Shown piece by piece: positions 2,894-22,992 of a stretch of DNA of 64,000 bases. Origin of the DNA: Candidatus Dormiibacterota bacterium (lineage in GTDB: Bacteria > Chloroflexota > Dormibacteria > CF-121); assembly GCA_035279665.1 (NCBI GenBank), contig DATEHI010000052.1, positions 7,939-71,938 on the forward strand, given 5' to 3'. The position numbers and the translations under genes were made by a program. Within the stretch, counting starts at the first letter, position 1. Each line of letters begins with the position of its first letter. The notes under the pieces were generated by a model, which saw nothing but the letters and a program-made list of their open reading frames with translations, was not told the origin of the DNA and made no database searches.

Positions 2894-7534
<4,641 letters not shown>

Positions 7535-7645
7535 TCTGAGTTACCAACGCTATCGATTGCGGCCGCTTCACGCCACGGACGATTGGTCCAAAAGGATGGC
7601 GTGGCGTCGTACCTTCCGCACAATGGTCGTGCGAGGTCGAGCAGG

Positions 7646-8764
7646 TTACCCGAGACGCTCCTTCAGCCAGTCGGCCATCAGCGGCCGGTATTTGTACGCG
7701 ATGTTGTTGCAGACGTGGTTGCCATCCGGGTACATCACGAGCGTCGCGTTCGGCGCCTCGCGTGCAATCCGCTCCGCCTGCGCGGGCGGAAACAAGCCGT
7801 CGCGGGCGCCATGGATCACGAGTAGTGGTTGGGTGACCTTGTCGAGGACGCCCTCGAGGTTTAGCGTGTATGCCTTGCGCTTGGCCTCGGCCTCATCCGC
7901 CGATTTCGTGTAGAAGATGTAGCCGCCTTTGGTCAGTGGGTTGATCGCGTCCCAGCACTCTCCGAGGTTGTACGGCCCGGACAGTCCGACGACGGCAAGC
8001 AGCCGCCTTTCGTGCGCCGCCGCCCTGGGGCCGTAGATCGCACCCATGCTGATCCCCATCAGGCCGATCCGGTTCAAGTCGACGCCCAGGTCATGGCGCC
8101 GCTCGAGATCGTCGACCAGCGGCGTGATCACGGATTCCCAATTGACGCGAATCGGAAAATGCACCGAGTTCTCCGACTGGCCGGGGCCGTCGATAGTCAG
8201 GGTCGCCAGACCGCGCCGGAGGAACTCCTCCTCGATGGCGAACAGCTCCTCCTTCGAGGAGTCGAGTCCCGGTACGATGAGGATGAGCGGTGGCCGGCGC
8301 ACGTCGCGAGGACGACGCAAGTGCCCCGGGATGATGTGGCTCTCGAATGGGATCTCGAGGCGCTCCGCCGGCGGGTCCAGGTGTGGAAGCGTCTTGCCGT
8401 AGACCGAGACCGAACGGTCGCGGAGCTCGCCGTGGAGCGAGAGATCCTCGAACCAGAGGAACTTCCCGAGGTGATAGCACCAGGCCGCCCGCTGGTAGGC
8501 CGCGGTGGCCGACACCATGCGCTCGTGCTGCTCGGCTTCGCGGCCGAGCGCCTCGTGCACCTCACCGACCGCCCGCCAGTTCGGGCCCCAGTCCTTCCAC
8601 TCCGTCGTCTTCCCCACGATCGTGTCGAAGTCGTTGACATCGATGCCGTTGGCCACGAAGCGCGCCCGCCAGTGATGGGCGGCGACCTGGACCCGGTTGC
8701 TCGGTAGATCTCCCTCCCCCCTTGTGGGGGAGGGTCGCGGTGGCGGGGTGGCGTGCACCGTCAT
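7646..8764 (-). CDS. Alpha/beta hydrolase fold protein (dienelactone hydrolase / S9-like)
   Basis: GISMG nucleophile elbow and alpha/beta-hydrolase core. The true start is most likely ATG at 8764..8762, overlapping the upstream gene's TGA (ATGA), not the longer 7646..8986 ORF. The first 25 codons are encoded by a palindromic repeat (PPPRPSPTRGEGD). Confidence 0.75.
   Translation of the reverse strand: MTVHATPPPRPSPTRGEGDLPSNRVQVAAHHWRARFVANGIDVNDFDTIVGKTTEWKDWGPNWRAVGEVHEALGREAEQHERMVSATAAYQRAAWCYHLGKFLWFEDLSLHGELRDRSVSVYGKTLPHLDPPAERLEIPFESHIIPGHLRRPRDVRRPPLILIVPGLDSSKEELFAIEEEFLRRGLATLTIDGPGQSENSVHFPIRVNWESVITPLVDDLERRHDLGVDLNRIGLMGISMGAIYGPRAAAHERRLLAVVGLSGPYNLGECWDAINPLTKGGYIFYTKSADEAEAKRKAYTLNLEGVLDKVTQPLLVIHGARDGLFPPAQAERIAREAPNATLVMYPDGNHVCNNIAYKYRPLMADWLKERLG
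8712..8750. repeat. Short GC-rich palindromic repeat, copy 1 (CCCTCCCCC-cttgt-GGGGGAGGG followed by G-rich tail)
   Basis: Perfect 9-bp inverted arms seen in sequence. A related copy lies at 35067..35098 and a weaker one at 1029..1059. Confidence 0.6.
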
Positions 8765-10368
8765 GTGACTTTCTCCTTCTGATGGATGGCCGCGTGGAGA
8801 CCGGAGCCGAGATCCTGCAGGAGGATGGCGGCGCAGTTCCGGCCCGGTAGACCGGACACCGACCCGCCCGGATGCGTGCACGCGCCCGTCTGATACAGAC
8901 CGTTGACCGGGGTCCGGTATGACGACCAGCCTTCGACCGGGCGGAAGTAGCCGCTCTGGTCCGGTGTGCTGGCCCCACCATGACACGATCCCCGCCAGTT
9001 CGCCGGATTCCGTCGCTCGAGGTCCAGCGGGCTTTCGACGTGTCGCGCCAGCACGATGCGCTCCGACAGATTCGTGGTCAGCGGCGCCAGCCGCTGGAAC
9101 AGGCGCGTCGCCACCTCCTCCTTGATCGCGTCCCAGTGTGGCGGGCCCTCGGCGAGTTCGTACGGGAGGAAGCTGATCAGCTTGAACGTCTGCTTGCCGG
9201 CGGGCGCGCGGGAGGCATCGACCACGGTTGGCGTGATCGCCAGGTAGACGGGGTCATCGAGCTCGACCCGCCCGGCGCGAAACGCGGTCAACATGCGATG
9301 CAGCGAGTCCAGCGATTCGAGCCCGCCCATCGTCACGCTCTCCAACGACCCGACTTCCGTCTGAAAGCGCGGCGCCTCACTCAACGCATAGTGAGCCACG
9401 AACATCGTCACGCTGGGCTTCCAGCGGGCAATTCCAGCGCGGTACTCGGGCGTGAGGTTCGCCTCTCCCACGATGCCGCTCAGATGCGCGATGTGGATCG
9501 TCGAGACCACGGCCTTCGAGGCGGAATAGCTCGAACCGTCGGCCGTGACGACGCCAGTCGCCCGTCCGCCTTCGACGACGATCCGGGTCACCGGCTTCGA
9601 TGTCAGGATGGCGCCGCCGTGCTCCCCAATGATCCGCGCGAGCGCGATGGGCAGGCGGTTCGAGCCACCCTCGGGCAGGATCCAGCTGAAGCGCTGCCGT
9701 CCCGCCACCAGCGAAAGAGCCAGCAGCCCTGTCTCCGGCTCGTCCAGTGGATGCAGCGTCATGAAGGCGATCCAGGCGAAGAAGGCGCGCACGTGCTCCT
9801 CGGCGAAACGTGCGGTGATGACATCGAGCGCGGTCGCCCGGCGGATGTCCAGCCCGCGCGCGCCGAGCGGCCCTGCCTGCGTCCGCGCCGCGACCTCAGC
9901 AGGTGGTCGGGGCGAGTTTTCCCGCTCGGCGTTCACGATCGGCGAGAGCGACTGCCAATCGGCGAGCAGCTCGCGATAGGCGTCGGCATCCGCACGCGAA
10001 AAGCGAGCCAGCTCCGCACACGTGCGATCGAGGTCGCGCCACATCGTAATGCTGCGGCCGTCGCGGAACGGCATGGTGAACACTGGATCGGGCGACAGGT
10101 AACGCAGCCCGTAGCGGTCGAGTTGCAATTCGTTGTTGCGCATCAACGGGTTGCTCTGGATCAGGTTATGCGCGGTCGCACACGAATCATGGACAAAGCC
10201 CGGCAGCGTGAGTTCCTCGGAGATTGTGTCGCCGCCGATCTGCGCGGCGGCCTCGAGAACCAGTACCTTGAAACCGGCGCGGGCGGCGTAGGCGGCGGTC
10301 AGCAGGCTGTTGTGGCCGGCGCCGGCGACAATGATGTCCCACTCGCCACCGCGGGCGGATACGCTCAA
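8761..10368 (-). CDS. FAD-dependent oxidoreductase (phytoene desaturase/CrtI-like amine oxidase family)
   Basis: N-terminal Rossmann motif DIIVAGAGHNSLLTAAYAARAGFKVLVLEA. The length (535 aa) is typical of CrtI-family flavoproteins. Confidence 0.8.
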   Translation of the reverse strand: MSVSARGGEWDIIVAGAGHNSLLTAAYAARAGFKVLVLEAAAQIGGDTISEELTLPGFVHDSCATAHNLIQSNPLMRNNELQLDRYGLRYLSPDPVFTMPFRDGRSITMWRDLDRTCAELARFSRADADAYRELLADWQSLSPIVNAERENSPRPPAEVAARTQAGPLGARGLDIRRATALDVITARFAEEHVRAFFAWIAFMTLHPLDEPETGLLALSLVAGRQRFSWILPEGGSNRLPIALARIIGEHGGAILTSKPVTRIVVEGGRATGVVTADGSSYSASKAVVSTIHIAHLSGIVGEANLTPEYRAGIARWKPSVTMFVAHYALSEAPRFQTEVGSLESVTMGGLESLDSLHRMLTAFRAGRVELDDPVYLAITPTVVDASRAPAGKQTFKLISFLPYELAEGPPHWDAIKEEVATRLFQRLAPLTTNLSERIVLARHVESPLDLERRNPANWRGSCHGGASTPDQSGYFRPVEGWSSYRTPVNGLYQTGACTHPGGSVSGLPGRNCAAILLQDLGSGLHAAIHQKEKVT

Positions 10369-10390
10369 GCGATCGCCGCCGCCGAATCAT

Positions 10391-11131
10391 TCACGCCGTG
10401 GCCCCCAGGTAGAGGCGGCCGATCTCCGGGTTGTTGAGCACCGCGGGGCCAGCGCCCTGCAGCCGCACCCGGCCGCTTTCCATGACGACGCCGTGCGTCG
10501 CCAGTCCGAGTCCGGACCGTGCGTTCTGCTCGACCAGCAGGATGGTTCGTCCCGCCTGGTTCATGGCGCGGATGGTGTCGAAGACAACGGTGCGCGTCTT
10601 CGGGTCGAGACCCATCGAGGGCTCGTCGAGGACTACGAGGGCGGGATCGAGCATCAGCGCCCGCGCGAACTCCACGATCTTCTGCTGCCCGCCAGAGAGC
10701 GACGCGGCAGGTTCGTGACGTCGCTCGCGCACGATGGGAAAGCTCTCGCAGACGGCACCCAGCCGGCGCTCAACGAGCCCGCGATCGCGCACCGTGTAGG
10801 CACCCATACGAACGTTCTCCCACACCGTCATCGTCGGAAAGAGGCTTCGCTCCTGCGGCACCTGCACGACGCCGCGGCGCAAGATCGCCGGCGGGCTGAG
10901 CCCGACGATGGATGCGCCGCGAAAGCGGATACGGCCGAGGCGCGGTCGCAGCAACCCGCTGATCACGCGCAGCACCGTCGACTTCCCGGCCCCGTTGGGC
11001 CCGACGATGCAAGTGATGGCCCCATCCTCAACCGTGAGGTCGAGCTCATGGAGGATATCGCCCCCGCCGTAGCCGGCGGTCACGCCTTCGAGCTCGAGCA
11101 GCGCCCCCATCTCAGGCTCCCAGGTAGGCAT
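10391..11131 (-). CDS. livF: Branched-chain amino acid ABC transporter ATP-binding protein (LivF type)
   Basis: Walker A GPNGAGKST, ABC signature LSGGQQ and Walker B LLDEPS. Position in a livJHMGF-order operon. Confidence 0.9.
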   Translation of the reverse strand: MPTWEPEMGALLELEGVTAGYGGGDILHELDLTVEDGAITCIVGPNGAGKSTVLRVISGLLRPRLGRIRFRGASIVGLSPPAILRRGVVQVPQERSLFPTMTVWENVRMGAYTVRDRGLVERRLGAVCESFPIVRERRHEPAASLSGGQQKIVEFARALMLDPALVVLDEPSMGLDPKTRTVVFDTIRAMNQAGRTILLVEQNARSGLGLATHGVVMESGRVRLQGAGPAVLNNPEIGRLYLGATA

Positions 11132-11843
11132 CGAGCACGGCTGGATTCTCGCGCACCTCGCTGGGCTTGCCGCTCGCGATCACGCGGCCCCGGTGCAGGA
11201 CCACGACCTCGTGGCACAGGTTCATCACGAAGCTCATGTTGTGCTCGACCAGCAGGAAGGTCACGCCCTGCCCATTCAGCTGCCTGATGTGTTCGGCAAT
11301 CCGCTCGAGCAGCACCGGGTTGACCCCGCCGGCGGGCTCATCGAGCAACACCAGTTCCGGCTGCGCCATCATCACCGCGGCCAGTTCCAGCAGCTTGCGC
11401 TGCCCGTACGACAGCGCACCACCGAGCGTGCCCGCGACTCGACTGATGTCCATGAACTCCAACATCTGCATCGCCCGCGCCTTCTCGTGGCCCCACTGTC
11501 CATGGGAAAGCAGCGCGCGCAACCCCGCACGCCGCACCGGTACCAGCATGTTCTCCAGCGCCGTCAGCCGTGGAAAGATGCGGGCCAGCTGGAAGGTGCG
11601 TCCGATACCCAGCCCGTAGATGCGGTCGGGGCCCAGGCCGGTGATCGACCGCGACTTGAATCGCACGTCGCCGCCGTCTCGCGGCAGGAAGCCGGTCACC
11701 AGGTTGAAAACGGTCGTCTTCCCGGAGCCGTTCGGACCGATCAGCCCGGTGATGCTGCCGGCCGGAACCGAGAGCGAGCACGAGTCGACCGCCACCACAC
11801 CACCGAAGCGCTTGGAGAGGTCCTGGATTTCGAGCAGGCTCAT
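11112..11843 (-). CDS. livG: Branched-chain amino acid ABC transporter ATP-binding protein (LivG type)
   Basis: Walker A GPNGSGKTT and signature LSYGQRK. Start taken at MSLLEIQDL (ATG 11843), which overlaps the livM stop (ATGA). The longer ORF to 11903 is an upstream extension. Confidence 0.9.
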   Translation of the reverse strand: MSLLEIQDLSKRFGGVVAVDSCSLSVPAGSITGLIGPNGSGKTTVFNLVTGFLPRDGGDVRFKSRSITGLGPDRIYGLGIGRTFQLARIFPRLTALENMLVPVRRAGLRALLSHGQWGHEKARAMQMLEFMDISRVAGTLGGALSYGQRKLLELAAVMMAQPELVLLDEPAGGVNPVLLERIAEHIRQLNGQGVTFLLVEHNMSFVMNLCHEVVVLHRGRVIASGKPSEVRENPAVLDAYLGA

Positions 11844-12886
11844 GGTGATGTGGCCCGGTGCTCTGCCGGCGTTGCCACGTCCTGTCGGGCACCGACGCGC
11901 CAACGGTGGAAGAGGTCCGCGAGCGAGGGAACGATCCCCCGGGGGAGGAAGAGGATCACGATCAGAAAGACCGCCGAAAACAGCAACAGGTAGAGCCGGC
12001 TAGCCCCGAAGCGATAGGCAAACTCCAGCTGTGCACGCTCGAGGAGCACCGCCCCGATCACCGGCCCGCTGAGCGTTCCGAGACCACCGAGGAAGGTCAT
12101 CAGCACCATCGAGATGCCGAGCAGCGGATCCACCACGAACTGCGGGTACAGGTAAGTGACGTAATAACCGTAGACGGCGCCGATCATGCCTACCAGCGTC
12201 GCGCTGATGACGAAGGCGGTGAGCTTGAACGCGCGCGTCGGCACGCCCACCGCCAGCGCCTTGTCCTCATCGTCGCGGATCGCGAGCAAGCCGAGCCCGA
12301 ACTTGGAGCGGCGAATCCACCAGGACAAGGCGAGCCCGAGGACCGCCAATGCGAGCATCGCGTAATAGAAGGGGATGTTGAAGAAATCACCCGTCCAGTC
12401 GTGAGGGTAGGGAACGCTCAGGCCGGCGCCACCTCCAGTGAGCTTGACAAGGTTTTCCGCCAGCAACTGCACGATGAACATGAAGGCGATGGTGACGATG
12501 ACAAAGGTCGCGGCCCGGGTGCGCAGCGCGATCCAGCCGATCCCGACCGCGGCCACCGCCGTCAGAAAGCCGGCGACCGGCACCAGCAGGAAGGGCGCGT
12601 AGCCCGGCGTGATGTTGAGGTGGATCAACAGCAGGCCGAACGAATAGGCACCGATCCCGAAGAATGCCGCGTGACCGAGGGAGATGTAACCGGTGTAGCC
12701 GCCCATGACGTTCCAGGCGGTTGCCAGCCCCACGTACATCACCGTGAAGACGGCGATGTTGGTGGTCGCCGGGTCGGGCGCGATCACGGGCAGGAACAGC
12801 GCGAAGGCGGCGAGCACGACCAGGCTGAGCGCCTTGAGTGCGGTCGTTTGACCGCTTCTCAGCCTGAGCGTGGGGATGGCGGTCAT
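11840..12886 (-). CDS. livM: Branched-chain amino acid ABC transporter permease (LivM type)
   Basis: Polytopic membrane protein with LivM-like conserved region (YISLGHAAFFGIGAYS). Confidence 0.9.
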   Translation of the reverse strand: MTAIPTLRLRSGQTTALKALSLVVLAAFALFLPVIAPDPATTNIAVFTVMYVGLATAWNVMGGYTGYISLGHAAFFGIGAYSFGLLLIHLNITPGYAPFLLVPVAGFLTAVAAVGIGWIALRTRAATFVIVTIAFMFIVQLLAENLVKLTGGGAGLSVPYPHDWTGDFFNIPFYYAMLALAVLGLALSWWIRRSKFGLGLLAIRDDEDKALAVGVPTRAFKLTAFVISATLVGMIGAVYGYYVTYLYPQFVVDPLLGISMVLMTFLGGLGTLSGPVIGAVLLERAQLEFAYRFGASRLYLLLFSAVFLIVILFLPRGIVPSLADLFHRWRVGARQDVATPAEHRATSP

Positions 12887-13758
12887 ATTCGATCACGCAC
12901 GCGCACGCCATAGAGGCCCTGCGGTCGCGCGATCAGGACGGCGACCAGAATGACGAAAAACACGAAGTTGGCCCAGACCGGCGAGACCAGGACGGCGGTG
13001 ATGTCTTCGGTGACCAGCATGACCAGCGCGGCGACGACGGCCCCGCGCAGACTTCCCAGGCCACCGAGCACGATGATGGTGAGAAGGCGCGAGATCAGAT
13101 CGTAGTGGCTGCCCGGGTTGAACGCATTGGTGATGCCGAACACCACGCCGCCGGCCGCCGCGGTCGCGACCCCGACGCCGAAGGCGAGCGCGGCGACTCG
13201 GTCGACGTCGATGCCGATCAACTGCGCCGCGGTTCGGTTGAGCATTGTCGCCCGGATAGCTCCGCCGAATGCGGTGCGGTAGAGCATCAAGAACAGCGCC
13301 CCCAGGATCGCGAGGCAAAGCACGAAGCCGAAGACATAGACATAGGTGATGCGGAAACCGAAGATCGGAAAGCTGGCGGTCTCGTACCAGGCCCGCAACT
13401 GGACGTAGTTGGTGCTGAAGAAATAACCGAGGACGCCCTCGACGCCAAGGGCGATCGCGTAGGTCACGAGTACGGACAGCGCTTCGCGGTCCGTCCTGAG
13501 CGGGCGAATGAACGCCAGCTGCAAGACGACGCCCAGCGCGAACATGGCCGGCATGGTGACCACCAGGCTGAGGAACGGGTCGATGTGGAAGGAGCGGAAG
13601 AGCGCGAAGCTGAGGTAGGCGCCGAGCACCACCAGCGCGCCGTGGCCGACGTTGATGATGCGCATCACGCCGAAGATCAAGGTGAGCCCCGAGGCCATGA
13701 GCGCGTAGACCCCGCCCGTCAGGATGCCGAGGGCCGCGGCCTGAAGGACGAGGCTCAT
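12883..13758 (-). CDS. livH: Branched-chain amino acid ABC transporter permease (LivH type)
   Basis: LivH-like N-terminus MSLVLQAAALGILTGGVYALMASGLTLIFGVMRIINVGHG. About 8 TM segments. Confidence 0.9.
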   Translation of the reverse strand: MSLVLQAAALGILTGGVYALMASGLTLIFGVMRIINVGHGALVVLGAYLSFALFRSFHIDPFLSLVVTMPAMFALGVVLQLAFIRPLRTDREALSVLVTYAIALGVEGVLGYFFSTNYVQLRAWYETASFPIFGFRITYVYVFGFVLCLAILGALFLMLYRTAFGGAIRATMLNRTAAQLIGIDVDRVAALAFGVGVATAAAGGVVFGITNAFNPGSHYDLISRLLTIIVLGGLGSLRGAVVAALVMLVTEDITAVLVSPVWANFVFFVILVAVLIARPQGLYGVRVRDRI

Positions 13759-13818
13759 CGCGGAAGCAAGCGAAAGATGAGGGGACGGCGCCTGCTGGTC
13801 ACCGTCCCCTCAGCCTAA

Positions 13819-15045
13819 CTAAGGCCAGTTCGGCTTCGGAAACTCGGGCTTGTTGGAGCCGGCCACGGTCGGGGGATAGACAAAGACTGCCTGGCCGGAT
13901 TGCCATTGTTCGATGTAGACGCCCACGCCACCCTGCGGCTTGCCCGTACTGTCGAAGGACATGGGGCCCTGGATCGTCTGGTAGGTCCCCGAATGCAAGG
14001 CGATGATCAGCTTCGAGTTCTCGATGCTGTTCGCCTTCTTGGCCGCCTGCTCGACCACCTGGCCAACACTGTAGGCCTCGGCGGCGTCGGCGCTGATGCC
14101 GCCAGCCGTACCGCCGTACTTGGCGATGAACTCGCTGACGAACTGGCTGTTGCCATAGGCGGTGGCATCAGACGTCCAGCCGGCCGGCACCATCACACCC
14201 TCGTCCGCCGAACCCACCTTGTCGGAGAAATCCTTGCCCTGGTCCGGGCCGGTGGTTTCGATCAGCGACTTGGGGTTGTAGTGCTGTTGCTGGAAGACCT
14301 TGATGAAGGCGACGGCGTCGGGGATCTGTGTTCCCAGGATCACGACGTCGGCATTCGCATGGATCATCTGCAGGGCGATCGGCGTGAAGTCCGTCGTCTC
14401 CGCTGGATATACCTTGTACCCACCGGACGGTGTGGTGATCCCGCCGGCCTCGAGCAGGGCCTTGGCCTTGTCGACTTGCGGCTGGGTGAAGGGATCATCC
14501 TGCGTCGCGTAGGCGGCGGTCTTCGGGCGCTGGCTGCTGGGGAGTCCGAGCAGCCATTTCGTATAGCTCACGAGGTTGTCTTCGACGGCCGCCGGCTGCA
14601 CGAAGAAAATGGACTTCAGGCCGCGGTTGAAGACGGCCGGACCGCCGCCGGCCGGCTCGGGAAAGGCGTAGCCATAACGGTCAGTGACCGTGGAGGCCGG
14701 GATCGTCAGCAGCGAGCTGAACGGTCCGAAGACCAACGCCACCTTCTCCTGCGTGATCAGGTTTGTATAGTTCGTGACCACCTGCTGCTGGCTGCTGGCG
14801 TCGTCGACGTATTTCATGGTTACCTGGTGCCCGAGCAGTCCGCCCTTCTTGTTGACGTCCTGCATCCACAGGTCATACCCCTGCTCCAGCGCTTTCCCGT
14901 CGGTCGAGAAGTCGCCGCTCAGCGATACGGAGACTCCGATCGTAATCGGCGCCTGGGGTGACGCGGTCGTGCTCGCCGTTGAGCTGCCGCACGCTGATAG
15001 AACCAGGGCGAACCCGGCCACGATCATCGACACGGGCTTACGCAT
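13819..15045 (-). CDS. livJ: ABC transporter substrate-binding lipoprotein, Leu/Ile/Val-binding (type I PBP) family
   Basis: Lipoprotein signal peptide with lipobox LSAC. PBP-I fold motifs (ITIGVSVSLSGDFS, KYVDDASSQQ). First gene of the liv operon. Confidence 0.88.
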   Translation of the reverse strand: MRKPVSMIVAGFALVLSACGSSTASTTASPQAPITIGVSVSLSGDFSTDGKALEQGYDLWMQDVNKKGGLLGHQVTMKYVDDASSQQQVVTNYTNLITQEKVALVFGPFSSLLTIPASTVTDRYGYAFPEPAGGGPAVFNRGLKSIFFVQPAAVEDNLVSYTKWLLGLPSSQRPKTAAYATQDDPFTQPQVDKAKALLEAGGITTPSGGYKVYPAETTDFTPIALQMIHANADVVILGTQIPDAVAFIKVFQQQHYNPKSLIETTGPDQGKDFSDKVGSADEGVMVPAGWTSDATAYGNSQFVSEFIAKYGGTAGGISADAAEAYSVGQVVEQAAKKANSIENSKLIIALHSGTYQTIQGPMSFDSTGKPQGGVGVYIEQWQSGQAVFVYPPTVAGSNKPEFPKPNWP

Positions 15046-15107
15046 GCTCCCTCCCTTCGGGCCAGAATCGACTCATTCTTTTGGCTCAGCCGGTTTGTTC
15101 TTGCATT

Positions 15108-15123
15108 GAACAAACGATTGTTC
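15108..15123. promoter_or_regulatory. Candidate LacI-family operator (GAACAAACGATTGTTC) in the divergent livJ/lacI promoter region, flanked by extra TTGTTC half-sites (15095..15100)
   Basis: Near-palindrome with central CG seen in sequence. It shares the core CAAACG(A/T)TTG with the perfect palindrome at 17372..17385. Confidence 0.35.
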
Positions 15124-15166
15124 TATGTTAGGCACGGGTCATACGATTGTCAATGAGGACGCGAGC

Positions 15167-16222
15167 ATGCCGGTCACACTGAAGCAGCTGGCCGCTCGCG
15201 CCCACGTCCACCCCTCCACCGTCTCGCGGGTCGCCAACCACGATCCGAGCCTGCGCATCGGCCCCGTCACACGGCAGCGGATCGAGACGCTGCTCCGCGA
15301 AACCGAATACCGCCCCAACGGCGTCGCCCGCGGGCTGAAGCTGGCGCAGACCCTGGTGCTCGCGGTGGTCATCCCCGACGTTACCAACCCCTTTTTTGCG
15401 GCCCTCTTTCGCGGCGTCGAGGATGGCGCCACGCCACGGGGGTATAACGTCCTGCTCTGCAACACGGATGGGAGTCCAGAGCGCCAGCGCTCGCACGTGC
15501 GAAGCCTGCACGCGCGTCGGGTCGATGGCGTCATTCTCGCCAGCAGCTTCCTCAAAGATCCGACGGTTCGCTGGCTGCGGCAGCAGCACATTCCCTATGT
15601 GTTGGTGAATCGGTTCAGCGACGAGGACCAGGACCCATTCGTCGGCTCGGACGACCTCGTCGGGGCCCGGGTCGCCACAACGCACCTCGCCCAACTCGGC
15701 CATCGCCGCATCGGCCACCTCGCCGGCAAGCCAACCGTCAGCACCGGAGTGCTACGTCGGCGGGGCTACCTCTGCGCGCTCCGCGATGCCGGCCTGACTC
15801 CGGACCCAGCCCTGGTCATCGAGTCCGGCTATACGGAGGAGGGCGGCGCGCGGGCGGCCGAGCGCCTGCTCGCGCTCGAAGATCGACCCACGGCCCTCTT
15901 CGCCGTGACCGACATGACGGCGGTGGGGGCTTTCGGCGCGGCCCGCCGGATGGGTTTGCGCGTCCCCGAGGACGTGGCGATCGTGGGCTACAACGACATC
16001 CCGCTGGCGATGCGAATGGTACCGGCACTCACAACGGTGCACGTCCCGATCCATGATTTCGGGGCCGCGGCGGCTCGCTTGCTGCTGGAGCAGATCGAGA
16101 CGGGCGAGCGCAGCCGGCGACGGGTGATCTTCAATCCCGAGCTGATCGTCCGCGGGTCGACGGTTGCCGGCGCTGGCACTCAAGCGGCTCACCAAGCCGT
16201 ACCGGCGTTTGCCAGCGAATGA
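15167..16222 (+). CDS. LacI-family transcriptional regulator
   Basis: N-terminal HTH (VTLKQLAARAHVHPSTVSRVAN) and periplasmic-binding-protein-like sugar-binding core. Start chosen at MPVTLKQ (ATG 15167). Confidence 0.9.
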   Translation: MPVTLKQLAARAHVHPSTVSRVANHDPSLRIGPVTRQRIETLLRETEYRPNGVARGLKLAQTLVLAVVIPDVTNPFFAALFRGVEDGATPRGYNVLLCNTDGSPERQRSHVRSLHARRVDGVILASSFLKDPTVRWLRQQHIPYVLVNRFSDEDQDPFVGSDDLVGARVATTHLAQLGHRRIGHLAGKPTVSTGVLRRRGYLCALRDAGLTPDPALVIESGYTEEGGARAAERLLALEDRPTALFAVTDMTAVGAFGAARRMGLRVPEDVAIVGYNDIPLAMRMVPALTTVHVPIHDFGAAAARLLLEQIETGERSRRRVIFNPELIVRGSTVAGAGTQAAHQAVPAFASE

Positions 16223-16232
16223 TGACACTGCA

Positions 16233-17171
16233 ATGGTAAGCAATCGTTTGCGCACACTCGGCTGGATTGGGACGGGGCGAATGGGATCGGTACTCGCCAC
16301 CCGCCTGCTGGAGCACGGCTGCGACCTGACGGTCTACAACCGCACTCGGGCCAAGGCCGAAGCACTGGCGCAGCACGGCGCGCGCATCGTTGATCAGCCG
16401 GCGGACCTGCGCGACCGCGACATCGTCATCACCTCCGTCGCGGGATCCCGTGACTTCGCCGAGGTGATGACCGGGCCGCACGGTCTCCTCGCGAACGGCA
16501 GCCGGGTGCCCGCGATGGTGATCGACACGTCCACCGTTTCGATGGACGTCTCGCAAACGATCCGTCAGAAGGCGGCCGAGCTCGGTGCGGCGCTGCTCGC
16601 GGCGCCGGTCAGCGGCAACCCGAAGGTCGCGCGCGCCGGCAAGTTGAGCCTGGCCGTGTCGGGGCCACGCCAGGCGTTCGAAGACGCGCTGCCCTACCTG
16701 GAGATGCTGGGAAAGAGCGTGACCTATGTCGGTGAGGGCGAGGCGGCCAGGCTGGTCAAGATCTGCCACAACCTCATCCTGGGCGTCGTCACGCAGATCC
16801 TCGCCGAGACAATCATCCTCGCGGAACGCGGCGGCATCAGCCGCGCCGACTACCTCGCGTTCATCAACGACAGTGTGATGGGCTCGACATTCAGCCGCTA
16901 CAAGACGCCTGCATTCGTCAGCCTCGATTTCACGCCGACCTTCACCGGCCACTTGCTGCGGAAGGACTTTGAACTCGGTTTGGACGCCGCGCGCCAGCTC
17001 GACGTTCCGTTGCCGGTCGCGGCCCTCACCCACCAGATCGTCGTCAGCCTTATCGAGAACGGCCTGGGCGAGGTCGATTTTGCCGCGCTCCTCGAGCTCG
17101 AGGCCCGTGGAGCGAATCTCCACCTGGCTCCGGAGGCACGCGAGATGTCGGACGGACTCGAGGCAGACTAA
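16233..17171 (+). CDS. NAD(P)-dependent oxidoreductase, 3-hydroxyisobutyrate / 6-phosphogluconate dehydrogenase-like (HIBADH family)
   Basis: Dinucleotide-binding motif LGWIGTGRMGSVLATRLLEHGCDLTVYNRT and a HIBADH-like C-terminal domain. Start at MVSNRL, 10 bp after the lacI stop. Confidence 0.85.
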   Translation: MVSNRLRTLGWIGTGRMGSVLATRLLEHGCDLTVYNRTRAKAEALAQHGARIVDQPADLRDRDIVITSVAGSRDFAEVMTGPHGLLANGSRVPAMVIDTSTVSMDVSQTIRQKAAELGAALLAAPVSGNPKVARAGKLSLAVSGPRQAFEDALPYLEMLGKSVTYVGEGEAARLVKICHNLILGVVTQILAETIILAERGGISRADYLAFINDSVMGSTFSRYKTPAFVSLDFTPTFTGHLLRKDFELGLDAARQLDVPLPVAALTHQIVVSLIENGLGEVDFAALLELEARGANLHLAPEAREMSDGLEAD

Positions 17172-17337
17172 CCCGACGCGCGGTCCGCGATGGACGCACC
17201 ACCAGGGCGGAGCGGCGCTACAGACAACCGCTCTGCGCCGGTATCCGTATCGCCGCCCCCTTCGCCGCCCTGGCACTCGGGGATAGCACGTCGCGAACCC
17301 CTCGCTGACCGCCATGCTAACCACCCCCATTTGATCT

Positions 17338-17385
17338 GTCAAAGGTTTGGCCATACCGCCCTTTTCTGCGTGCCAAACGTTTGGC
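17338..17385. promoter_or_regulatory. Two operator-like palindromes: imperfect gtCAAAgGTTTGgcc (17338..17352) and perfect 14-bp GCCAAACGTTTGGC (17372..17385)
   Basis: Perfect palindrome with central CG seen directly. It lies upstream of the truncated LacI paralog and the M24/E1/ALDH operon. Confidence 0.35.
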
Positions 17386-17499
17386 GCCCGTTAACCTCAG
17401 CCGCGCGGGGTTGCGGAGCGTTGCTTCCGATGCATACCCCTCACCAGCGGTTAACGTTGGACCAGGGCGCTGAGCGCCTGGGTGATGGCAGGGCGGGGC

Positions 17500-18292
17500 G
17501 ACGGGTGGGCGAACGCAACGCGCGCCGGGGGCGGACGATCGTGACCCTGGAGGAGGTTGCTCGGGCAGCGGGCGTTCACTATTCGTGGATCGGATCCTCA
17601 ATCACCTCTTGAGCCGGCGGGTCGACGCCATCATCCTGACCGGTGCGCGAATCCGCGACGCACCCAGACTGCGCCAGATCCGGCGTCAAGGCATCCCGCT
17701 TGTGCTGGTGGTTCAGGATGTTCCCGGGATCCGCTTGCCGGCCGCCATCAATGACGACTTCCTCGGCGGCGTGCTGGCGGCTAAACATCTCCTCTCGCTC
17801 GGGCACCGGCGCGTCGCCCAACTGCGCGGACCGCCGGACCTCAACTCCTGCGTCTTGCGTGCCCGGGGTTTCAGCAAGACGATTGCGGCCGCGGGCGCCG
17901 TGGAAGTCGCCCTTCGGTCCACGGCCCCCACGGGATCACCCGACGAGGGTCGTTTCCTGATGGGGAAGCTCCTCGATCGCAAGGGACCGAGGCCATCCGG
18001 GATCTTCGCGCATCATGACCTGATGGCCTTCGGCGCGCTCACCGCGGCGGAGGAGCGAGGCTTGCTGGCTCCGAAGGACCTGTCGATGATCGGCTATCAC
18101 GATCTGCCGCACGATGAGCGCATCGTGCCGCCGCTCACCTCCATCCGACAACAGCGCGAGAAAATCGGCCGGACCGCCGCACAGTTTCTCGTAGAAATGC
18201 TCAGGCCGCCGGGCCGGGCGCCGGCCCCTCGACGGCTCGCCCCCGAGCTGGTGGTGCGCCAATCGACCGGTCCGCCTCCAGCCATTCGTTAA
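17500..18292 (+). pseudogene. Truncated/frameshifted LacI-family regulator paralog (HTH disrupted, about 85 codons deleted)
   Basis: An HTH remnant RTIVTLEEVARAAGVH is in one frame (17190..17612 ORF). It then switches frame near 17580 into a LacI ligand-binding domain starting at the position equivalent to ...RRVDGVIL... of the intact paralog at 15167..16222. No intact DNA-binding domain remains. Confidence 0.5.
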
Positions 18293-18294
18293 CC

Positions 18295-19566
18295 TTGAGC
18301 GCGGTGGCACGAACGAAATCCGAGTTCACCGTGACCTCCGTCCCCGCACCGGGGCGGATGCACGTCGATTGGGAGGAACGGGTCGATTTCCGCCGCCTCC
18401 ACGACTACCGGCTGGGACGCACCCGCCAGGCGATCGCGAATGCCGGCCTCGGTGCGGTGCTGGTCTTCGACATGAACAACATCCGCTACATCACCAGCAC
18501 CACCATCGGCGAGTGGGCGCGCGACAAGATGGCTCGCTTCGCGCTGCTGACCCGGGGCGGCGACCCGATCCTGTGGGATTTCGGCTCGGCGGCGAAGGCG
18601 CATCGCCTGCACGCGCCCTGGCTGCGGCCAGAGAATTCTCGAGCCGGAATGACGGGTCTACGTGGGTCCGTTGCCCCCGATGCGGGCCTCTCGGATGACG
18701 TCGCGATGACCGTAAAGGACCTGATGCGCGAGCAAGGCGTCGCCGGCGAGCCGCTTGGCGTCGACATCGCCGAGCTGCCGATGGTCTTCGCGCTGGAGAA
18801 GGCGGGCATCAACGTCGTCGATGCGCAGCAGGCGATGCTCGACGCGCGACAGATCAAGTCCCAGGACGAGATCACGCTGCTCAGCATGTCGGCCGCGCTC
18901 GTCGATGGCGTCTACCAGACGATCTACGAAGTGTTGAAGCCGGGCATCCGCGAGAACGAGATCGTCGCGATTGCCAACAAGCAGCTCTACGACATGGGCT
19001 CCGACGATGTCGAGGCGATCAATGCCGTGTCGGGCGAGCGTTGCAGCCCGCATCCTCATGTCTTCTCCGATCGCCTCATCCGGCCCGGCGACCAGGCGTT
19101 CTTCGACATCATCCAGGCCTACAACGGCTATCGCACCTGCTACTACCGGACCTTCAACGTCGGCCGCGCGACGCAGAGCCAGCGCGACGCCTACAAGAAG
19201 GCGCGCGAATGGATCGATGCGGGGATCGACATGGTGAAGCCCGGGGTCACGACCGACATGATCGCCCGGGCCTGGCCGAAAGCGCAGGATTTCGGCTTCG
19301 AGAACGAGATGGAGGCCTTCGGCCTACAGTTCGGGCACGGCCTTGGGCTGGCGCTGCACGAACGACCGATCATCAGCCGCCTCACTTCGCTCGACCACCC
19401 GGTCGAACTGAACGAGGGCATGGTCTTCGCCCTGGAAACCTATTGCCCGGCGTCGGACGGCCATTCGGCGGCGCGCATCGAGGAGGAAATCGTGGTGACG
19501 GCGACGGGGCACGAGGTGATCACCCTCTTCCCCGCCGAGGAGCTCGTCATCGCGAACGCCTATTGA
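18295..19566 (+). CDS. M24-family metallopeptidase (creatinase / Xaa-Pro dipeptidase / ectoine-hydrolase-like)
   Basis: Creatinase-type N-terminal domain followed by a pita-bread catalytic domain with metal ligands (DxxxD...H...E...E pattern). Start uncertain: TTG at 18295 or ATG at 18358. Confidence 0.8.
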   Translation: MSAVARTKSEFTVTSVPAPGRMHVDWEERVDFRRLHDYRLGRTRQAIANAGLGAVLVFDMNNIRYITSTTIGEWARDKMARFALLTRGGDPILWDFGSAAKAHRLHAPWLRPENSRAGMTGLRGSVAPDAGLSDDVAMTVKDLMREQGVAGEPLGVDIAELPMVFALEKAGINVVDAQQAMLDARQIKSQDEITLLSMSAALVDGVYQTIYEVLKPGIRENEIVAIANKQLYDMGSDDVEAINAVSGERCSPHPHVFSDRLIRPGDQAFFDIIQAYNGYRTCYYRTFNVGRATQSQRDAYKKAREWIDAGIDMVKPGVTTDMIARAWPKAQDFGFENEMEAFGLQFGHGLGLALHERPIISRLTSLDHPVELNEGMVFALETYCPASDGHSAARIEEEIVVTATGHEVITLFPAEELVIANAY

Positions 19567-19586
19567 GCACCCAGGTCGGTCGGCCC

Positions 19587-20576
19587 GTGGAGGATGAGGT
19601 GGACCGCCCAACGCAGCTGCGCCTTTATCGATTGATGGTCGAGCTGCGCGATTTCGAGCAGCGCGCCTACGAGCTGTTCCTCGAGAACCTGGTGCGCGGC
19701 ACGAGCCACCTGGCGCTCGGGCAGGAGGCCATCGCCGCCGGCTACGCGGTGGCGATGCGCGCCGATGACTACACCTTCTGCACCTATCGCGGTCACGGCC
19801 ACACCCTCGCTCGCGGCGCGTCGATGGCCGGCGCGCTGGCCGAGCTGATGGGGCGTGGCAACGGCATGCTCCACGGCAAGGGCGGGTCGATGCACCTTAC
19901 CGACGTCACGCATGGGGCCATGGGGTCCTACGCGATTGTCGGCGCGCACCTGCCGATCGCGGCCGGCGCCGCCTGGTCGGCGCAGGTTCGCAAGTCCGGA
20001 CAGGTCGCGGTCTGTTTCTTTGGCGACGGGACGACCAACATCGGCGCCTTTCACGAAGCCCTCAACCTGGCGGTGATCTGGAAGCTGCCGGTGGTCTTTT
20101 GCTGCGAGAACAACCAGTACATGGAGTACACGCCGATTCGATCGGTGACCGCTGTCGAGCATCCGGCCGCCGACCGCGCCTCGGCCTACGGCCTCGACGC
20201 AATCCTGGTCGACGGCAACGATGCCGACGTGATGTACGAGACGGCGAGGCAAACGATCGGCAAGGCTCGCAACGGTGGCGGCCCCTCGCTGATCGAGGCC
20301 CTCACCTATCGGCACGGTGGTCACTCGCGCGCCGATCCCGCCAAGTACCGGCCGGAGGCCGAGGTGCAGGAATGGCTCGGCCGCGACCCGGTGAAGCGCT
20401 ACCGCGAACGGCTGCAGGCCGCCGGCATCGGCGAGGCCGAGCTCAACGAGATCGATACCCGCGCTCAGCAGAAGGTGGACGCGGCGACCGATGAGGCGCG
20501 CAAGGGTGCCCCGGCCCGGGTCGCCGAGATCGAACGCCAGGTCTGGAGTGACGGAGGCGCAGCATGGCGGAACTGA
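19587..20576 (+). CDS. Thiamine-diphosphate-dependent 2-oxoacid dehydrogenase E1 component, alpha subunit
   Basis: Conserved YRLMVELRDFE...GQEA...YRGHG... and TPP-binding GDG(X)nNN (FFGDGTTNIGAFHEALNLAVIWKLPVVFCCENNQY). GTG start at 19587 after the M24 stop. The longer 19041 ORF overlaps the preceding gene. Confidence 0.85.
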   Translation: MEDEVDRPTQLRLYRLMVELRDFEQRAYELFLENLVRGTSHLALGQEAIAAGYAVAMRADDYTFCTYRGHGHTLARGASMAGALAELMGRGNGMLHGKGGSMHLTDVTHGAMGSYAIVGAHLPIAAGAAWSAQVRKSGQVAVCFFGDGTTNIGAFHEALNLAVIWKLPVVFCCENNQYMEYTPIRSVTAVEHPAADRASAYGLDAILVDGNDADVMYETARQTIGKARNGGGPSLIEALTYRHGGHSRADPAKYRPEAEVQEWLGRDPVKRYRERLQAAGIGEAELNEIDTRAQQKVDAATDEARKGAPARVAEIERQVWSDGGAAWRN

Positions 20577-21538
20577 GTTTCCGCGAGGCGATCGCGGCCG
20601 GCATCGCGCAGGAGATGGAGCGGGACCCGATGGTCTACTTCATCGGCGAGGACGTCGGCGCCGCCGGCGGTGTCTTCAAGGCGACGGTCGGGCTATTCGA
20701 ACGCTTCGGCCCGGAACGCGTGCGCGATACGCCGATCTCGGAGCAGGCGATCATCGGCGCCGCGATGGGAGCGGCGATGACCGGTCTTCGGCCGGTGGCC
20801 GAGATCATGTTTTCCGATTTTCTCGCGACCTGCTGGGACATGATCGCGAACCAGGTGGCCAAGACGCGCTACATGACGGACGGCCAGGTCTCGCTCCCGC
20901 TCGTGATCCGGACCGCCAACGGCGGTGGCACACGCTTCGGCGCGCAACACTCGCAGAGCCTCGAGAACTGGGGCATGGCGGTGCCAGGCTTGAAAGTCGT
21001 CGCGCCCTCGACACCCGCCGACGCCAAGGGCTTGCTGGCGGCTGCCATCCGCGACCCGGACCCGGTGCTCTTCTTCGAGCAGAAATCGCTCTACGGCGTC
21101 AAGGGCCAGGTCCCGGACGGCGAGCATGTCGACCGCCTCGGGACGGCGAACGTGCTTCGGAATGGGAAGGATTGCACCATCGTGGCGCTAGCTGCGATGG
21201 TGCCCAGGGCGATGCAGGCCGCCGAGAAACTCGAAGACCTGGACATCGACGCGACCGTTGTCGATGTCCGCAGCCTGGTGCCGCTCGATACGCGGATGAT
21301 CCTCGCGGAAGTCATCAAGACCGGCCGGCTCTTCACGGTCGAGGAGAACCCGCGACTCTGCGGCTGGGGCGCCGAGATCGCCTCGATCGCAGCCGACGAG
21401 TGCTTCGACGACCTGGACGGCCCCATCGTCCGCATCACGACGCCGCACGTCCCGCTGCCGGCCGCCGACGTGCTGGAGGATGTGGCCATGCCGTCGGTGG
21501 AGCGCATCGTCGCGACCGTGCGAAAATCAATGAAATGA
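20564..21538 (+). CDS. 2-oxoacid dehydrogenase E1 component, beta subunit (transketolase-like)
   Basis: MAELSFREAIAAGIAQEMERDPMVYFIGEDVG... is typical of E1-beta. It overlaps the alpha gene by 13 nt. Confidence 0.9.
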   Translation: MAELSFREAIAAGIAQEMERDPMVYFIGEDVGAAGGVFKATVGLFERFGPERVRDTPISEQAIIGAAMGAAMTGLRPVAEIMFSDFLATCWDMIANQVAKTRYMTDGQVSLPLVIRTANGGGTRFGAQHSQSLENWGMAVPGLKVVAPSTPADAKGLLAAAIRDPDPVLFFEQKSLYGVKGQVPDGEHVDRLGTANVLRNGKDCTIVALAAMVPRAMQAAEKLEDLDIDATVVDVRSLVPLDTRMILAEVIKTGRLFTVEENPRLCGWGAEIASIAADECFDDLDGPIVRITTPHVPLPAADVLEDVAMPSVERIVATVRKSMK

Positions 21539-22992
21539 CCCCTGTCAGTGAGCTGATCTCCGTCCGCCATACCGACCTCTACCTCAATGGCTCCTGGGGC
21601 CCGGCCGCCGACGGCCAGCGGATCGATGTCCAGGACCCGGCGACCGGCGAGGTGATCGCGACCGTCGCCAGTGCCGCGGTGCAGGATGCGCTCGCGGCCG
21701 TGCAGGCTGCCGCGGACGCCTTGCGACCCTGGGCCGCCAGGCCGCCCCGGCAGCGCGCCGAGATCCTGCGCAAGGGCTTCGAGCTGATGATGCGCGACCA
21801 GGAAAAACTCGCGGAGTTGATGGTCCGCGAGAACGGCAAGCCGATGGCCGAGGCGCGCGGCGAGGTCGCCTACGCGGCCGAGTTCTTCCGTTGGTTCTCC
21901 GAAGAAGCCGTGCGGAATATCGGCTCGGTGTCGATCTCGCCCAGCGGTGCCAACCGCATCCTGGTCGAGCACCAGCCGATCGGGGTGTCCGTGCTGGTCA
22001 CGCCCTGGAATTTCCCGGCGGCGATGGCCACCCGAAAGATCGGACCTGCCCTGGCCGCCGGCTGCACCGTCGTGTTGAAGCCGGCATCGGAAACGCCGCT
22101 GACGGCGCTGGCGATTGCGGACCTCCTCGAGCAGGCCGGCGTGCCGAAGGGGGTCGTCAACGTGATTCCGTCGAAGCGCTCGTCGGAAGTGGTCAAGGCC
22201 ATGCTGAAAGATCCGCGGGTGCGCAAGCTCTCCTTCACGGGCTCGACCGAGGTAGGGCGCATCCTGCTGGCGCAGGCGGCGGAGAATGTGATCAGCTGCT
22301 CCATGGAGCTGGGCGGCAATGCGCCGTTCATCGTGCTGGCGGACGCCGACCTGGATGCCGCGCTCGAGGGTGCGATGGTCGCCAAGATGCGAAACACCGG
22401 GCAGTCGTGCATCGCCGCCAACCGGTTCTACGTCGAGGCGCCGGTCGCGGAGAAGTTCTCGACGATGCTGGCGCGTGCCATGGGCGCCTTATCGATAGGC
22501 TCGGGCATGGATCCCGACGTCAAGGTCGGGCCGGTCATCAACCAACCCGCCCGCGAGAAGATGCTGGGATTGGTCGCGGAAGCGGCGGGGCATGGGGCCC
22601 GGGTGCTGACCGGAGGCAGCGCGCCGAACCGACCAGGGTATTTCGTCCCACCCACGGTGCTGAGCGAAGTTCCACCCGATGAACACATCCTCAAAGAGGA
22701 AATCTTCGGGCCGATCGCGCCCGTCGTCACCTTCCGCGATGTCAACGAAGCCATCGAGTTTGCGAACCGGACCGACCGTGGCCTGGCCTCCTACGTTTAT
22801 ACGCGCGACCTGGCGAAAGGCCTGGCGATCGCCGAGGCGATCGAGTCCGGGATGGTCGGCCTCAACCGCGGCTTCATCTCGGATCCCGCTGCCCCCTTCG
22901 GCGGCGTGAAGCAGAGCGGCGTCGGTCGCGAGGGTTCGCACGAGGGTCTGCTCGAGTTCCTCGAAACCAAGTACATCGCGACCAACTGGTAG
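21535..22992 (+). CDS. NAD(P)+-dependent aldehyde dehydrogenase, succinate-semialdehyde dehydrogenase (GabD)-like
   Basis: ALDH motifs VTPWNFPAAMATRKIGPALAAGCTVVLKPASETP and catalytic Cys in GQSCIAANR. ATG at 21535 overlaps the E1-beta stop (ATGA). The 833-aa ORF from 20491 is a frame artefact. Confidence 0.9.
   Translation: MTPVSELISVRHTDLYLNGSWGPAADGQRIDVQDPATGEVIATVASAAVQDALAAVQAAADALRPWAARPPRQRAEILRKGFELMMRDQEKLAELMVRENGKPMAEARGEVAYAAEFFRWFSEEAVRNIGSVSISPSGANRILVEHQPIGVSVLVTPWNFPAAMATRKIGPALAAGCTVVLKPASETPLTALAIADLLEQAGVPKGVVNVIPSKRSSEVVKAMLKDPRVRKLSFTGSTEVGRILLAQAAENVISCSMELGGNAPFIVLADADLDAALEGAMVAKMRNTGQSCIAANRFYVEAPVAEKFSTMLARAMGALSIGSGMDPDVKVGPVINQPAREKMLGLVAEAAGHGARVLTGGSAPNRPGYFVPPTVLSEVPPDEHILKEEIFGPIAPVVTFRDVNEAIEFANRTDRGLASYVYTRDLAKGLAIAEAIESGMVGLNRGFISDPAAPFGGVKQSGVGREGSHEGLLEFLETKYIATNW

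Follow-up and report, generated by a model that had tools for sequence, protein, structure and literature searches.

We analysed a stretch of 64,000 nucleotides (the window; 64 kb, G+C content 66.6%) of a Candidatus Dormiibacterota bacterium (assembly GCA_035279665.1, contig DATEHI010000052.1, positions 7,939 to 71,938), the closest relatives of which are soil metagenome-assembled genomes (MAGs), mostly labelled Candidatus Dormiibacterota or 'Chloroflexi CF_'. The subject is a compact catabolic island in this window and its putative control by regulators of the LacI family. The island comprises: a leftward operon of seven genes for uptake and oxidoreductase functions (7646..15045, minus strand); the divergent gene lacI1, encoding an intact LacI-family repressor of 351 amino acids (LacI1; 15167..16222, plus strand; Pfam domains LacI, Peripla_BP_1 and Peripla_BP_3); a gene of the 3-hydroxyisobutyrate/tartronate-semialdehyde dehydrogenase family (16233..17171, plus strand; start uncertain, ATG at 16233 or TTG at 16248); a second LacI-family gene, LacI2, present as a pseudogene between the dehydrogenase and M24 genes (17485..18292, plus strand); and the catabolic genes for an M24 hydrolase, E1 alpha, E1 beta and an aldehyde dehydrogenase (ALDH) (18295..22992, plus strand). 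The palindromes that are found between these genes are, judged by sequence comparison, evolutionarily conserved predicted binding sites for LacI-type repressors, and we consider it probable that such repressors control the island through these operators, LacI1 being intact and LacI2 dead.

The main predicted LacI1 operator, O1 (GAACAAACGATTGTTC, 15108..15123, core 15111-15120), is a 16-bp palindrome, of which the centre falls between C and G and 7/8 pairs are symmetric; it lies upstream of both divergent genes, 44 nt from the ATG of lacI1 and 63 nt from that of the gene for the transport binding protein. The putative auxiliary site O1' (CATACGATTG, 15140..15149, 1 mismatch) is found 29 bp to the right of O1 and overlaps the -35 hexamer (TTGACA) of the predicted transporter promoter. 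O2 (GCAATCGTTTGC, or CAAACGATTG on the minus strand; 16240..16251) is a CG-centred 12-bp site with 5/6 symmetric pairs, located 18 nt past the lacI1 stop, where the dehydrogenase gene begins, and its decamer is that of O1 on the other strand. O3 (GCCAAACGTTTGGC, 17372..17385) is a perfect CG-centred 14-mer palindrome 100 nt upstream of the conserved LacI2 ATG, and O3' (GTCAAAGGTTTGGCC, core CAAAGGTTTG, 17338..17352), the presumed decayed distal operator of LacI2, has its central CG changed to GG. An earlier, sequence-only reading of this DNA had placed three of these palindromes (O1, O3 and O3') correctly and had overlooked O2 (16240-16251) and O1' (15140-15149). It had also mentioned an extra 'TTGTTC' half-site, which is real: the orphan half-site GTTTGTTC (15093..15100) is an inverted copy of the left half of O1, i.e. 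the reverse complement of GAACAAAC (15108-15115) with which it is listed as a stem, and it is kept only in the closest relatives (the near clade).

Exact CAAACGWTTG occurs at 3 distinct sites in the 64 kb against 0.11 expected (0/100 shuffles reached 3), and all three fall within 2.3 kb. With at most 1 mismatch to the core there are 7 sites in the window, 5 of them between 15111 and 17383, and with at most 2 mismatches the number of sites is at background level (50 against 50.2 expected). O1, O2 and O3 have the form by which LacI/GalR operators are recognised, an even palindrome, some 14-22 bp long and centred on CG, and O3', with its GG centre, does not; a CG-centred even palindrome is the norm for LacI-family operators (Ravcheev et al. 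2014, PMC4052901). The further sites that a weight matrix suggested as regulon members (53536, 56082 and 20245) lie inside open reading frames (ORFs), score 8 or less and were taken as chance. The nearly equal spacing, centre to centre, of O1 and O2 (1130 bp) and of O2 and O3 (1133 bp) is best treated as coincidence. A literature search for CAATCGATTG gave primers and unrelated matches only, and one for CAAACGTTTG led to PurR and MalR.

To follow these sites across genomes we scanned with the M24 protein, which gave 80 loci (numbered L001 to L080), mapped the island genes by tblastn and looked for CAAWCGWTTG without mismatches. The 36 Dormibacterota loci (522 kb) gave 82 exact matches versus about 0.9 in shuffles, a roughly 90-fold enrichment. 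The automated count divided them into 33 O1 or O1' matches (spread over 30 loci), 30 O2, 17 O3 and 2 others, one of the latter being the O1 of L003 that was misclassified owing to an N gap, so that 81/82 are located at three conserved positions. According to the same count the core is present in the divergent transporter/lacI1 promoter region of 30 of the 31 related loci holding that region, and the 31st, L003, has it too. The core of O1 is invariant in 28/28 aligned divergent regions, in which the promoter hexamers are conserved and the flanks vary, and the alignment thus contains a conserved island, cTTGCGnTGaACAAACGATTGyyyTATGTTAGG...TGTCAATG, as is expected of a phylogenetic footprint in orthologous upstream regions. 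O1' is a perfect CAAACGATTG in L001, L012 and L015 only. The core is also found directly before the dehydrogenase-M24-E1-ALDH operon in 30 related loci, where most relatives have the arrangement TTGACA...TATGGT-AGA-CAAACGTTTG-CGC upstream of the dehydrogenase gene, with the operator 3 nt past the promoter; in most relatives O2 thereby sits on the predicted transcription start of the operon, and no second regulator gene lies in between. Beyond the phylum, 33 of the 44 loci from other lineages, mostly Actinomycetota including Acidimicrobiia, have G-CAAWCGWTTG-C upstream of the same operon at a distance of at most 350 nt; in these loci the motif is often also found beside transporter genes, and many have a LacI gene nearby. 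Enrichment, positional conservation and LacI adjacency together bear out the proposal that the palindromes are operators of the LacI type.

O1 stands in a fixed relation to two promoter-like elements. The predicted transporter promoter (TTGACA-17 nt-TAACAT, 15125..15153, minus strand) matches 10/12 consensus positions in a promoter scan, and both its hexamers are conserved across relatives. The putative lacI1 promoter (TTGCAT-17 nt-TATGTT, 15101..15129, plus strand) scored below the threshold of the scan and was read from the sequence and the alignment; its TTG and TATGTT are conserved, the plus-strand consensus in relatives being TTGCRN-17-TATGTT. The -10 hexamers of the two divergent promoters overlap. 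Because O1 fills the 17-nt spacer of the predicted lacI1 promoter and begins directly downstream of the transporter -10, one dimer bound at O1 would shut both promoters.

LacI1 itself is intact, with a DNA-binding part that resembles those of CcpA and PurR. The helix-turn-helix (HTH) scores 33.7 bits on PF00356 (cut-off 27 bits), Peripla_BP domains are also present, and the protein aligns full-length to the structures of PurR, CcpA and RbsR. Its hinge, YRPNGVARGL, aligns with that of CcpA and keeps the conserved Leu, and of the two LacI-family genes near the sites only lacI1 combines an intact HTH with an intact hinge. DNA looping appears unlikely, because LacI1 ends in ...AVPAFASE and lacks a leucine-heptad tetramerisation tail.

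The likeness to characterised family members is partial. The E. coli pur box (ACGCAAACGTTTGCGT; purM and xanP sites) is likewise an even, CG-centred palindrome, 16 bp long, with the same CAAACGTTTG core, and LacI1, which aligns full-length to the PurR crystal structures, keeps the hinge motif VARxLK. PurR, however, is global, depends on a corepressor, controls purine synthesis and is unlinked to its targets, whereas LacI1 is local, is encoded inside its target island, is presumably released by an inducer and would control the M24/E1/ALDH cluster. On the NCBIfam PurR model LacI1 scores 216.7 bits against a cut-off of 501 bits, and the island contains no purine genes; a PurR regulon is not what is found, and the resemblance to PurR is limited to the operator core. 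Bacillus CcpA and its cre sites resemble the system in a DNA-binding domain that can be aligned throughout, TVSRV and the hinge YRPN(A/G)VARGL included, and in a CG-centred palindromic operator, but CcpA needs HPr-Ser-P and acts globally, and LacI1 has a 2-residue insertion in the loop that follows the recognition helix. As in the E. coli GntR/IdnR pair, two LacI paralogs would have overlapping operator specificity on adjacent or related operons; GntR and IdnR are recent duplicates, whereas LacI1 and LacI2, at 36% identity, come from different deep clades and include a pseudogene. In a survey of local LacI-family regulons, reconstructed by comparative genomics, 96% of the pathway-assigned groups control carbohydrate use (PMC4052901); the present island differs from those regulons in that its transporter is of the Liv type (Peripla_BP_6) and its enzymes, among them an M24 hydrolase, E1 alpha/beta and a succinate-semialdehyde dehydrogenase (SSADH)-like dehydrogenase, include no recognisable sugar enzyme.

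LacI2 is damaged in the window. Its alignment to L001 shows one clean gap of 268 bp (89 codons + 1 nt; L001 positions 4649-4916 lost, junction between 17585 and 17586), with no evident microhomology or flanking repeats at the junction. The deletion has taken away the remainder of the recognition helix, the hinge and the start of the ligand-binding core (roughly its first 49 positions), and it shifts the frame. Of the HTH 15 codons survive as a stub (VTLEEVARAAGVHYS, 17541-17585). An ATG in frame is present in 12 of the 14 intact LacI2 genes that were recovered from relatives; the equivalent ATG in the window (17485) does not share the frame of the HTH, probably because 1 nt was lost in the G-run 17503-17505. 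The remnant consists of 235 codons (17585-18292, 705 nt) with no further stops or frameshifts, and covers positions 50-261 of the 281 of the Peripla_BP_1 profile. The sequence-only reading had ascribed the loss of the HTH to a frameshift plus a deletion of about 85 codons; the loss stands, but not the separation into two events, as the one 268-bp deletion does both and 15 HTH codons remain. HTH, hinge and a complete two-subdomain core are not found in one frame, and because the core is incomplete, the HTH stub lies in another frame and 268 bp are missing, while the 14 homologues are complete, we regard the LacI2 of the window as a pseudogene. The deletion is no sequencing error, because the identical junction occurs in two other independent assemblies, ERZ27257070 and ERZ27257067, which have 25 and 106 substitutions relative to the window over about 20 kb. 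These two contigs are 99.88% and 99.44% identical to the window and exactly the same over 17300-17700, and the same 235-aa ORF is called in them, which answers the earlier question whether re-sequencing would restore the frame: the lesion is real.

The history of LacI2 can be traced in the Dormibacterota relatives, among which it is present only in L001-L005, L008, L009, L015, L018, L033 and L036, as two tandem copies in L003, L005 and L008, adding up to 14 genes, all full length, with an N-terminus of the form MQRRGGG...RTIVTLEDVARAAGVHYSTVSRALDP. The core motif is found upstream of 14/14 of them. This distribution shows that LacI2 is under active duplication in the very subclade in which the window lost it. 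The tandem copies have diverged, are intact and each have their own operator (L003 7587-9998, L005 7526-9998, L008 7673-9948). A seemingly reciprocal loss in L003, a broken LacI1 beside two intact LacI2 genes, was dismissed, the break being a 23-N scaffold gap. The view that the paralog is a degraded duplicate of the neighbouring lacI did not hold: LacI1 and the LacI2 core are 36% identical, and in a neighbour-joining tree LacI1 groups with the island regulators of Streptosporangiales and Occultella and LacI2 with those of Acidimicrobiales. Because of this low identity and these different deep clades we see in them two old lineages of one island-associated group and no recent duplication.

O3' and O3 (at 17340 and 17374) have their homologues in the sites that precede every intact LacI2 gene (14/14); in L001 and L004 these form intact pairs 33 bp apart, the distal one reading CAAACGATTG in L001 and CAAACGTTTG in L004. 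By this homology O3 and O3' were the predicted operators of LacI2 itself. L002, L004, L008 and L009 lack O2 and L001 keeps half of it; all five carry LacI2, a pattern that agrees with the M24 genes having passed to the LacI2 promoter. It suggests that within the LacI2 subclade the dehydrogenase gene is transcribed along with lacI1, and the M24 genes from the promoter of LacI2. The earlier proposal of one LacI regulon joining the transporter and M24/E1/ALDH operons thus survives in altered form, since a link is supported, but one that would run by way of O2 and LacI1 and not of the sites close to the paralog.

The non-coding region between the dehydrogenase gene and LacI2 has some features of its own. 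A block directly after the dehydrogenase stop (17205-17300) is about 97% identical to L001, the synonymous divergence of the flanking genes being 0.4-0.7, and is recognisable also in L004, L015 and L033. It includes a hairpin (GCGGAGCGG-N12-CCGCTCTGC, 17208-17237), possibly a U-less terminator between the lacI1-dehydrogenase and LacI2-M24 transcripts. A sigma-70-like promoter (TTGACA-17-TAGCAT, 17314-17342, minus strand, 10/12 matches) points left into the conserved block; the left half of O3' supplies its -35, its -10 is conserved in L001 and L004, and downstream of it there is no gene and no known RNA. An RNA element within 14900-18400 was considered and dropped, as Rfam gave no match there at E <= 1 and the fold of the conserved block 17172-17335 is unremarkable (z = -1.76).

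Taken together, the layout conforms to the standard signature of a local, autoregulated LacI-family regulon. A LacI1 dimer would bind the CG-centred palindromes with core CAAWCGWTTG. At O1 it would regulate its own gene and repress the seven-gene uptake and oxidoreductase operon, O1' providing a weaker added site over the transporter -35, and at O2 it would block initiation or early elongation into the dehydrogenase gene and, ancestrally, into the whole catabolic operon. A small molecule, either the transported substrate or an intermediate, would presumably release LacI1. In the subclade that gained it, LacI2, with its own promoter and O3/O3', would regulate itself and gate the LacI2-M24-E1-ALDH transcript. 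Because LacI2 has been inactivated by the out-of-frame deletion of 268 bp, the M24-E1-ALDH promoter of the window would be without a dedicated repressor, and would be either derepressed or partly held by cross-binding of LacI1 to O3.

It could also be that LacI1 has taken over completely, binding all five sites including O3, so that M24-E1-ALDH stays fully repressible within a single LacI1 regulon. This spells out the model of the sequence-only reading, and we find it rather unlikely. O3 does share its 10-bp core with the O2 of the relatives (CAAACGTTTG), the LacI2 operator of the L002 type (GCAAACGTTTGCGC) equals the O2 14-mer of L007-type genomes, which have LacI1 only, and both regulator lineages appear to regulate the same operon in other phyla. 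There is precedent in E. coli GntR, which recognises IdnR sites (PMC4052901), and PurR tolerates variation at the outer operator positions. The flanks of O3 (C at -1, G at +10), however, are unusual for this family of sites, all those assigned to LacI1 having a purine at -1 and a pyrimidine at +10, and on a symmetrised weight matrix O3 scores 9.8 versus 30.5 for O1 and 24.6 for O2. The recognition helices differ as well (VHPSTVSRV in LacI1 versus VHYSTVSRA in LacI2, including one classical specificity position, HP-S versus HY-S), and O3' lacks the central CG. The common core, to which the sequence-only reading had appealed as evidence for one regulator, does not discriminate, since the E. coli PurR box, too, has CAAACGTTTG as its core and a CG-centred palindrome is the family norm; it is explained by the shared ancestry of LacI1 and LacI2 together with family-wide operator preferences. 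On these sequence grounds it is somewhat more likely that O3 is orphaned or weakly cross-bound by LacI1 than that it has been fully taken over.

Another explanation gives the LacI2 remnant a present function: the 235-aa product (17585-18292) would still be made as an HTH-less ligand-binding modulator that acts, for example, by sequestering inducer or by forming inactive heterodimers. The clean 705-nt ORF, its dN/dS at the level of intact pairs, the presence of the allele in three non-identical assemblies and the prediction of the ORF by gene callers would all agree with this. It is nevertheless improbable in our view, for the remnant lacks the HTH, the hinge and about the first 49 Peripla_BP_1 positions, which leaves the N-subdomain incomplete, no convincing ribosome-binding site precedes its GTG (17585), heterodimers are unlikely at 36% identity to LacI1, and a recent deletion accounts equally well for a clean ORF. 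That LacI2 is in fact intact, with the deletion, the frameshift or both produced by faulty assembly or sequencing, is less credible still: the window comes from metagenome-type data and the core ORF is otherwise undamaged, but the two separately assembled contigs carry exactly the same sequence over 17300-17700, and assemblers do not typically introduce a clean loss of 268 bp where flanking repeats are lacking. Chance palindromes, or sites of another regulator family, we regard as effectively refuted; nothing but the shortness of the 10-bp core speaks for them, against the roughly 90-fold enrichment, the positional conservation across phyla and the constant adjacency of LacI genes.

Control of the island by LacI-family repressors, with LacI1 intact and LacI2 dead, remains the reading that we prefer, and several points weigh against it. 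The assignments of proteins to sites are drawn from position and conservation only. The plus-strand lacI1 promoter is weak by consensus and was not called by the scan, and the promoter rules as such were assumed for an uncultured phylum, the Dormibacterota. In the window O2 overlaps the coding start of the dehydrogenase gene, the usual leader of 55-70 nt being missing (as in L021), and fewer than 1% of LacI-family sites lie in coding sequence (PMC4052901); the present role of the window O2 is the weakest link of the proposed mechanism. Finally, the LacI2 remnant has a dN/dS of 0.28 relative to L001, the same as intact pairs (0.15-0.28), and thus shows no signal of relaxed selection. Because of this equality the inactivation would be recent, or the remnant may still matter.

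The genes of the island give an impression of the pathway. The leftward operon encodes (all on the minus strand): a Peripla_BP_6 binding protein (13819-15045), two Liv-type permeases (12883-13758 and 11840-12886), two Liv-type ATPases (11112-11903 and 10391-11131), a CrtI-like FAD oxidoreductase (8761-10368) and an alpha/beta hydrolase (7646-8986). The catabolic genes, all on the plus strand, are those for the M24 hydrolase (18295-19566), E1 alpha (about 19599-20576), E1 beta (20564-21538) and the SSADH-like aldehyde dehydrogenase (21535-22992). None of the island's enzymes reached an NCBIfam equivalog cut-off, and domain and NCBIfam assignments revealed no recognisable sugar enzyme among its genes. 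The nearest solved structure to the M24 hydrolase is DddP (E = 3e-24), a match too distant to name a substrate from. Dormibacterota share one conserved set of genes, namely those for a hydroxyacid dehydrogenase, the M24 hydrolase, E1 alpha/beta and the SSADH-like ALDH, which is also conserved among loci L037-L080, in many Actinomycetota and in single MAGs that bear the labels Stellaceae and Gammaproteobacteria; a CrtI-like FAD oxidoreductase and a Liv-type transporter often accompany it. The labels Candidatus Binatus, Acidoferrum or Eisenbacteria are attached to several of the nearest loci (L001, L019, L002), which show 84-96% protein identity and the same synteny; these labels probably reflect binning errors, because the gene content matches that of Dormibacterota and 'Chloroflexi CF_' MAGs.

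The dehydrogenase gene of the window lacks the leader, the ribosome-binding site and the first ~8 codons that are present in most relatives (16233-16290); O2 overlaps its codons 3-6, and L021 (about 9040) is equally compact. In the sister contigs the automatic calls start this gene at the equivalent of window position 16281, which would cut off the GxGxxG nucleotide-binding loop. At the far side of the transporter operon, between the alpha/beta hydrolase gene and an ORF for the glutamate synthase large subunit, lies GCTATCGATTGC (7548-7559), 1 mismatch from the actinobacterial-type operator GCAATCGATTGC and 16 nt upstream of the predicted TTG start of that ORF; it could be a chance occurrence or a further regulon member.

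With regard to what this island may mean beyond the window, two readings are put forward jointly and tentatively, as a possibility that we rate well below even. The first is that of a cross-phylum regulon, which extends from Dormibacterota to Actinomycetota (Acidimicrobiia included) and to at least one gammaproteobacterial MAG and serves an apparently non-carbohydrate pathway (M24 hydrolase, E1 alpha/beta, SSADH-like dehydrogenase, hydroxyacid dehydrogenase and Liv-type transporter), which would imply a new class of effector. The second is that of regulator turnover in progress, in which a second, horizontally derived LacI was gained, was duplicated in some lineages and was lost here, so that LacI1 would inherit its perfect operator. 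All of this is ordinary bacterial gene control that leaves the current understanding of LacI-family regulation in place, and its interest is modest, residing in the non-carbohydrate-looking targets, the conservation across phyla and the snapshot of regulator turnover. For the Dormibacterota, a candidate phylum represented here by MAGs only, the island provides a concrete regulon and promoter/operator layout, with conserved sigma-70-like hexamers (TTGACA-17-TAACAT); to our knowledge no promoter has been experimentally mapped in this phylum. The island, conserved from Dormibacterota to Actinomycetota, has a sensor from a family that almost always senses sugars or nucleosides, and the repressor may be used to fish for the inducer. 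For the family, the locus may serve as a small natural experiment in the gain, duplication and loss of a regulator with retention of its operators.

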